Source of the DNA: Escherichia coli
GTDB taxonomy: Bacteria; Pseudomonadota; Gammaproteobacteria; Enterobacterales; Enterobacteriaceae
Length of the DNA stretch: 650 bases
NCBI RefSeq assembly: GCF_003334405.1
Contig: NZ_QOWM01000059.1
Strand: one strand, 5' to 3'
In this document: positions 1-650 of the stretch, in pieces
Position numbering within the stretch: position 1 is the first letter of the stretch
How the letters are laid out: the number at the start of each line of letters is the position of its first letter
Translations under genes and position numbers: made by a program
The notes under the pieces: generated by a model
Database searches by the model: none
Told to the model about the DNA's origin: nothing
The model's input: the letters and a program-made list of their open reading frames with translations, nothing else

Positions 1-650
1 CTTTTCGCGCCGGTGTGTATTCCGGCTCCACCTGTCTGGCCAGTTGCTCCACCGTCAGCCCGCACTGCGCAAGCCACGCCCGGCTTTCACTGCTCACGCG
101 GTCTGCCCGGATTTCTTCCTCCAGCCTGTCCAGCAGCCGCACCAGTTCAGCCGGGAACACCACGCCGTGGCCGTTCTCACTCCCTTCCTGCTGGAGCGTC
201 TCTGCCAGGCTGCGCCGCTGCGCTTTTTCCCGCTCGCCGTTCTCTGTCTCGACCCGGATGAGCGGCGTGAAGCTTCCCGGCTCGTATACCGTCTGGATAC
301 GTGTGGTGTCAGTCTGCACCGTCGTCAGCCTGTCTCCGTCCCAGCCATACCACGTCACCTCCGGTTTACGCGACAGCGACATCCACCCCGTCAGGTCACG
401 CTCCCGCCGCCAGACCCGTTTTGCCATTCGCCGTCCCAGCGGGTCGTAGAGGTAGCGGCTCTCGACCAGTGGCTCGCCATGCTGTATCCGCGTGTAGAAC
501 ACCAGGCGGTGCTGGCTGTCGTAGTGGTAGTGGTGGGTCCGCTCGTCGTCCGTCCGTATCACACCCGCCGGGATGCGGTCCGTCTTCTCCGTCAGCCTGC
601 CGTATTCATCGTGGCGGTAGACATAGTGCGCATCCTCCGCGATGCGGTTA
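1..650 (-). CDS. rhs: Rhs family YD-repeat protein, conserved core region; internal fragment, partial at both ends (N-terminus beyond position 650, C-terminus beyond position 1)
   Basis: Hand translation of the reverse complement in the frame with codons 649..647 down to 4..2 gives 216 codons with no stop. The product contains YD-repeat motifs ([39 protein letters not shown]) and matches my recollection of the E. coli RhsA/B/C/D core. GC about 64% with G/C-rich third positions, typical of Rhs cores. Paralog cannot be resolved from this window; the symbol is a family-level placeholder. Confidence 0.95.
32..253 (-). other. Glu/Arg-rich segment of the Rhs core lacking YD motifs, probably helical
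   Basis: Translation [74 protein letters not shown] is dense in E/R/Q/L/A and has no Y-x-Y-D pattern. Helical character is inferred from composition only, not modelled. Confidence 0.5.
326..625 (-). other. Block of four degenerate YD (Rhs) repeats within the Rhs core coding sequence
   Basis: Protein-level motifs fitting the YD-repeat pattern (Y-x-Y-D-x2-G-R-L or close variants) at about 593..625 ([11 protein letters not shown]), 500..529 ([10 protein letters not shown]), 428..454 (YLYDPLGRR) and 326..352 (WYGWDGDRL). Spacing is about 25-35 residues. These are degenerate at the DNA level, not nucleotide direct repeats. Confidence 0.8.

Follow-up and report, generated by a model that had tools for sequence, protein, structure and literature searches.

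Core segment of the RhsD/RhsE subfamily in Escherichia coli: a direct two-copy repeat in most carrier genomes, and the gene conversion that may keep the copies identical

The Rhs core segment analyzed here raises the question of whether a stretch of 650 nucleotides (the window) can be assigned to a single place in the genome that carries it and, if not, what keeps its copies alike. The best explanation overall, with a probability of about 0.9, is that the window is a core segment of the RhsD/RhsE subfamily, present as two direct copies in most carrier genomes, with their identity upheld by gene conversion. The two-copy repeat is in itself already known, and all of the results fall within well-known Rhs biology; they serve as a caution for practical work and not as a discovery, and illustrate how Rhs cores evolve in concert, a process whose outlines have been known since the 1980s–90s.

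With respect to the nature of the window, the sole stop-free frame of the six is minus-strand frame 2, which is open across all 650 bases. Its 216-aa product was matched to positions 941–1156 of the 1261 positions of the NCBIfam model NF041261 (RHS_core), with an E-value of 1.4e-141 and 473.6 bits—a score that falls short of the cut-off for the whole protein (2,000) because only 17% of the core is contained in the window. The peptide corresponds to residues 938–1153 of RhsD, that is, nt 2811–3460 of the rhsD coding sequence (CDS), and the full genes matching the window are annotated as 'RHS element core protein' or RhsD. The mean G+C content of E. coli is ~51%; that of the window was found to be 62–67% in each 100-nt step, and within rhsD the values are 63.3% for the core versus 36.5% for the tip. 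The motif marking the end of the core, PxxxxDPxGL, occurs in RhsD as PLQQIDPMGL at residues 1249–1258, ~100 residues downstream of the segment encoded by the window, and beyond it come the toxin tip, which is variable and A+T-rich, and then a small gene, namely ybbC for rhsD and ydcD for rhsE. The single open frame, the RHS_core match, the RhsD coordinates, and the G+C content thus confirm the identification of the window as part of an Rhs core, as proposed in the initial annotation. The features of the window are as follows.

1–650, minus strand: internal segment of an Rhs core open reading frame of the RhsD/RhsE subfamily, open at both ends (RHS_core match; identity with K-12 rhsD and rhsE)
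242–649, minus strand: YD-repeat (beta-shell) part, peptide residues 1–136 (structure alignments, TIGR01643, and motifs), with a conserved 13-residue end
599–619, minus strand: YD-type motif YRHDEYG in the window peptide
434–454, minus strand: YD-type motif YLYDPLG in the window peptide
2–241, minus strand: charged stretch of ~80 aa without YD motifs, peptide residues 137–216, ending in EPEYTPARK and lying inside the RHS_core model

Residues 2–136 of the window peptide align with the C-terminal YD-repeat shell of solved T6SS Rhs proteins, including the YEPGSFTPL motif, with matches to Tse5 from Pseudomonas aeruginosa (8cp6; E 1.5e-8), the Rhs core from Salmonella bongori (8qjd/8qjb), and an Rhs family protein (7q97). 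TIGR01643 (YD_repeat_2x) was matched at residues 98–122 (E 0.0017), and a Pfam scan of the 216-aa peptide returned RHS_repeat matches at sub-threshold level only (E 0.69 and 5.4); full-length RhsD contains 12 YDxxG motifs. The charged stretch at residues 137–216 is unaligned or only partly aligned in every solved Rhs structure found, and is also present in rhsA, rhsB, and rhsC, to which the window aligns without gaps. Overall, the window very probably encodes the last YD-repeat strands of a shell enclosing a C-terminal toxin. At the level of sequence, its apparent likeness to T6SS Rhs effectors extends to the shell alignment of residues 2–136 and to the vgrG gene directly before intact rhsE in strains M217 and O157:H7. 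However, these effectors are distant (E 1e-8 to 1e-4) and offer no aligned counterpart for residues 137–216, and the linkage to vgrG has been lost at K-12 rhsE, together with the 5′ part of rhsE itself, and is absent beside rhsD.

Internal repeats in the window consist of just short two-copy matches of 15–18 nt with 81–87% identity, and the internal-repeat search found no inverted repeats in the window. No Rfam family was matched in the window at E-values up to 1, so that the coding sequence is the sole feature found there. Two plus-strand open reading frames, of 144 aa (15–449) and 82 aa (13–261), lie antisense to the Rhs frame; they were rejected as genes, as none is annotated in K-12 and such frames are expected opposite a coding region of ~65% G+C.

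Comparison of the window with the five rhs loci of K-12 MG1655 (NC_000913.3) showed 650/650 identity at two of them: rhsD (b0497; 526,071–526,720), between ybbP and ybbC, and the rhsE pseudogene (b1456; 1,528,525–1,529,174), between yncH and ydcD. Both exact copies are on the plus strand and 1,002,454 bp apart, and are therefore direct repeats; an exact duplicate of 650 bp cannot arise by chance. Apart from this complete identity, the window shares with K-12 rhsD and rhsE the reading frame and the succession of a G+C-rich core and an A+T-rich tip, and nothing differs. The homology between K-12 rhsD and rhsE extends over 1,577 bp at 95.6% identity, with the 69 mismatches unevenly distributed: an 848-bp tract (rhsD CDS nt 2613–3460) has none, and the adjoining 415 bp to one side and 314 bp to the other contain 36 and 33, respectively.

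1–650, no strand given: dispersed two-copy exact repeat, wholly within the 848-bp tract

Since the window lies wholly inside this zero-mismatch tract, it can be assigned neither to rhsD nor to rhsE. Base 1 of the window is the last identical base of the tract (526,720 in rhsD; 1,529,174 in rhsE), presumably by a coincidence of how the window was cut. The base that follows it in the gene differs between rhsD and rhsE, so that one extra base would discriminate the two loci.

The remaining Rhs loci stand further off. Rhs genes have been grouped into the rhsABCF, rhsDE, and rhsGH subfamilies, with a G+C-rich core and an A+T-rich tip (PMC2935791). A member is expected to diverge by a few percent within its subfamily and by more than 20% from the others, and the identities observed, 100% to rhsD and rhsE and 76.6–77.0% to rhsA, rhsB, and rhsC, place the window in the rhsDE subfamily. 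The core fragment at ybfO falls in the same range of 76.6–77.0%, and the alignment with rhsA, rhsB, and rhsC is gapless over 649 nt. Thus, RhsA, RhsB, and RhsC resemble the window in gene family and core architecture, but at only this level of identity. Among themselves they are much closer, with rhsA and rhsB 99.2% identical and either of them 96.8% identical to rhsC over 3.7 kb, and they are reportedly the original 'rearrangement hot spots' of Lin, Capage and Hill (1984; cited in PMC3045373), mediating duplications. The longest exact word that the window has in common with rhsA, rhsB, or rhsC is 14 nt, and RecA-dependent recombination needs ~20–30 nt of perfect identity. On the basis of the 77% identity and the 14-nt word, these three loci were rejected as mapping competitors or efficient recombination partners of the window.

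Strains with an intact rhsE extend the comparison. In M217 and O157:H7, a full-length rhsE with vgrG directly upstream is found between yncH and ydcD, and the M217 rhsD, located by synteny, is identical to that of K-12. The rhsE of K-12 is a deletion remnant: only its last 2,037 nt are left, 100% identical to M217, and vgrG is gone. Because the rhsD and rhsE sequences are identical over the parts compared, K-12 and M217 represent one history and not two. In M217, rhsD and rhsE have a 3,774-bp common core with 97.5% identity, 95 mismatches, and no gaps; the mismatches are clustered in three patches (CDS nt 249–459, 2136–2612, and 3461–3774), which leave exact tracts of 1,676, 848, and 248 bp. 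The window occupies CDS nt 2811–3460 in both genes, and the 848-bp tract ends sharply at the identical base in K-12 and M217, with locus-specific differences flanking it. In O157:H7, the rhsE locus contains the only near-identical copy, whose one mismatch falls within window positions 326–650.

The number of copies was then determined for a population set of 5,426 complete E. coli genomes. A megablast search with the window hit 3,724 genomes at 10,781 places in total, with a median of 3 and a maximum of 6 per genome, and the best place was at least 99% identical in 1,790 records. A sensitive blastn search, which includes the 77% paralogues, gave 25,118 places in 3,899 genomes (median 7, maximum 11), with six in K-12. 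Near-identical copies were counted with the 325-bp halves of the window, not the full 650 bp, using the E-value cut-off as an identity filter; for a 325-bp half, the score is 601 bits (E 8e-169) when the match is perfect and drops by ~5.5 bits with every mismatch. The counts were as follows.

Window 1–325, ~98.5% identity or better: 1,837 genomes, 3,019 places; two copies in ~65%
Window 326–650, ~98.5% identity or better: 1,816 genomes, 3,006 places; two copies in ~65%
Window 1–325, zero mismatches: 1,792 genomes, 2,855 places; two copies in 1,063 (59%)
Window 326–650, zero mismatches: 1,343 genomes, 2,298 places; two copies in 955 (71%)

With either filter, none of the 5,426 genomes had more than two copies of a 325-bp half, and a near-identical copy is present in about one third of the set. 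Of the 40 genomes listed as matching all 650 bp at 100%, most have two or more places. The window is carried exactly by more than 1,000 complete genomes, and no particular strain is pinpointed by it. An exact 50-mer (window 281–330) was absent from 100,044 species-representative genomes, that of E. coli included; within E. coli, the sequence is confined to certain lineages. The E. coli representative thus lacks an allele that is carried by ~1/3 of the complete E. coli genomes.

Judged from these sequence counts, the window is probably non-unique in its own genome, in a strain-dependent manner, and the expectation of a non-unique segment in the initial annotation held up, with two exact copies in K-12 and 59–71% of the genomes with an exact copy having it doubled. 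The further expectation of several near-identical multi-kilobase copies was borne out in part: the copies are near-identical, but there are exactly two (rhsD and rhsE) rather than several, and multi-kilobase homology is found only where rhsE is intact (3,774 bp, 97.5%), the tract in K-12 being 848 bp.

What, then, keeps two loci 1 Mb apart identical over such lengths? The distribution of mismatches is far from random: in 20,000 permutations with randomly placed mismatches, the longest exact run had a mean of ~200 bp and a maximum of 561 bp, against observed runs of 1,676 and 848 bp. Furthermore, 18.8% of the third codon positions differ in the divergent patches versus 0 of 283 in the 848-bp tract, an outcome with a probability of ~2.5e-26 at the patch rate. 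Inferred from this pattern, the mosaic of identical tracts and patches with ~19% divergence at third positions indicates gene conversion between paralogues. The affinities of individual segments are also mosaic. At nt 601–2097, M217 rhsE matches the rhsD of the same genome exactly and differs from O157 rhsE; at nt 301–450 and 3448–3597, it groups with O157 rhsE; and at nt 2848–3447, rhsD, M217 rhsE, and O157 rhsE are all identical.

According to the proposed mechanism, the rhsD and rhsE cores, direct copies ~1 Mb apart, would be kept partly identical by conversion between the loci, which would produce long zero-mismatch tracts (848 and 1,676 bp) between patches with ~19% third-position divergence. 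The rhsE copy has yncH (or vgrG) on one side and ydcD on the other, and rhsD has ybbP and ybbC as its neighbors. The core homology would serve the exchange of toxin tips, by analogy with the orphan rhs of Salmonella (PMC3967940).

The extent of the tracts was also compared among lineages by means of the patch adjoining the window (nt 2136–2460), the rhsD type of which was found in 1,394 genomes (1,596 places) and the rhsE type in 594 genomes (676 places). Because this patch is single-copy in most genomes and doubled or tripled in some, the boundaries of the tracts vary among lineages. Derivatives of E. coli B have two near-identical copies of the rhsD-type patch and one exact copy of window 326–650, the reverse of the arrangement in K-12, suggesting a different mosaic of rhsD and rhsE types in the B lineage.

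Two other origins of the identity were weighed against gene conversion. Strong purifying selection on the shell part, without recombination, would be conceivable for a segment that encodes conserved structural repeats, and the protein is indeed under constraint, as synonymous changes account for 52 of the 81 codons that differ in the divergent patches. However, selection on the protein is unable to remove synonymous differences, so that protein-level selection does not explain third positions that differ at 0 of 283 sites in the tract and at 18.8% in the patches. Moreover, rhsD and rhsA show 26–43 differences per 150 nt (17–29%) in the region of the window, as in the rest of the core, and a constraint at the nucleotide level is disfavored by the lack of an Rfam match and of any annotated antisense gene in K-12. 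Purifying selection as the source of the identity, highly improbable in our estimation, was rejected as effectively refuted by the third-position and rhsA data. An artefact of assembly or polishing, with the reads of one locus overwriting the other in public genomes, is less credible still. Rhs genes are known to cause misassembly (PMC3045373), and some 'plasmid' records with the window sequence resemble misplaced chromosomal pieces, but the MG1655 reference NC_000913.3 has the duplicate, as do about a thousand complete genomes that were assembled independently. In addition, the tract has a sharp end, at a base common to K-12 and M217, with locus-specific differences beside it, and an experimental rhsD × rhsE recombinant has been recovered, showing that usable homology exists.

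The remaining alternative concerns the strain from which the window was taken—that is, the window may be part of an Rhs core yet single-copy in its own genome, with no second rhsD/rhsE-type copy and no problem of mapping or assembly. Single-copy carriers do exist: among genomes in which the second half is exact they number 388 of 1,343, and among those in which the first half is exact, 729 of 1,792. They include the E. coli B derivatives, with one exact copy; ECCWS199 and RM14721, with one place even at megablast sensitivity; and O157:H7, with one copy at the rhsE locus. In such genomes the divergence of the other paralogues, whose longest exact word in common with the window is 14 nt, is too great for interference. 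On the other hand, most genomes that have an exact copy (59–71%) have a second one, the listed genomes with 100% identity over 650 bp mostly show two or more places, and O157:H7 is ruled out as the source by the one base in 326–650 at which its single copy differs from the window. A single copy in the source genome is thus regarded as possible but rather unlikely, and the two-copy rhsD/rhsE repeat maintained by conversion is the reading retained here.

The consequences of the two-copy repeat for sequencing were assessed in K-12 by scoring reads that lie at least half inside the window for exact identity at the other locus. The fraction of such reads was 92% for a length of 100 nt, 88% for 150 nt, 77% for 300 nt, and 54% for 500 nt, and fell to 0% for 1,000 nt. 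The loci thus constitute a repeat in the practical sense, with two copies and identity exceeding read length (848 bp in K-12; 1,676 and 848 bp in M217). In most carrier strains, short reads from the window are not uniquely placeable. Variant calls are unreliable at the edges of the identical tract, and short-read assemblies break at rhsD and rhsE. Indeed, 454 shotgun assemblies of K-12 strains were reported to have contig breaks at rhsD and rhsE, as well as at rhsA, rhsB, and rhsC, and one false polymorphism was traced to rhs misassembly (PMC3045373). Reads of at least 1 kb resolve the repeat in K-12, and an intact rhsE demands a span of up to ~1.7–3.8 kb.

Recombination between the two copies is possible, leading to duplications or circles of ~1 Mb. 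In a conjugation between E. coli and Salmonella, a donor fragment of ~957 kb was found to have been circularized via recombination between rhsD and rhsE (PMC9551528), and the size of this circle is close to the 1.0-Mb spacing of rhsD and rhsE measured in K-12. The effects on read mapping and contig joins and the role as a recombination substrate that were foreseen for this segment are therefore both substantiated, the former by the 88% of ambiguous 150-nt reads in K-12 and the reported contig breaks, and the latter by the rhsD × rhsE crossover together with the mosaic pattern that points to past gene conversion.

A related arrangement is known from Salmonella Typhimurium, in which recombination of the main rhs gene with an orphan fragment activates a new toxin (PMC3967940). 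K-12 resembles this system in having a truncated core with its own tip and immunity gene (rhsE with ydcD) and with core homology to a full-length rhs gene. The Salmonella orphan, however, lies directly downstream of the main gene, whereas 1 Mb separates rhsD from rhsE in K-12 and their orientation is direct, so that a simple crossover between them would duplicate or delete 1 Mb. Transfer of the rhsE tip to rhsD without a large rearrangement could occur only by non-reciprocal conversion. It has also been considered, as a speculative proposal that we regard as improbable, that the zero-mismatch tracts are repeatedly renewed, with lineage-specific boundaries, and are selected as a homology 'landing pad' for the transfer of tip and immunity genes between distant rhs loci. 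The window being mostly present in two copies, and the adjacent patch mostly in one and sometimes in two or three, fits repeated events but does not demonstrate selection. If true, such a landing pad would extend the main/orphan mechanism of Salmonella to unlinked loci.

The window sequence is also matched by 11 records of a plasmid collection. These were rejected as evidence of a mobile copy, those examined being chromosomal pieces or circles consisting only of repeats. NZ_CP069916.1 ('Klebsiella oxytoca FDAARGOS_1334 plasmid unnamed5'; 19,343 bp, linear) contains the window at 100% identity, and its gene order, ybbA-ybbP-rhsD-ybbC followed further on by allS-allA-allR-gcl-hyi-glxR-allantoin permease, is that of the E. 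coli chromosome; this suggests a contaminant or an unplaced contig instead of a plasmid of Klebsiella. NZ_OY757120.1 (E. coli pF873-2; 7,307 bp, circular, non-mobilizable) combines an Rhs core fragment, with 94.5% identity to the window, and small open reading frames associated with rhs (dsORF-e4), and no replication or mobilization genes are listed for it. Similar records of 6.8–7.0 kb are CP048292.1 and NZ_CP034740.1. All three are probably repeat-induced assembly circles derived from rhs loci and, if so, would exemplify the assembly risk raised in the initial annotation.
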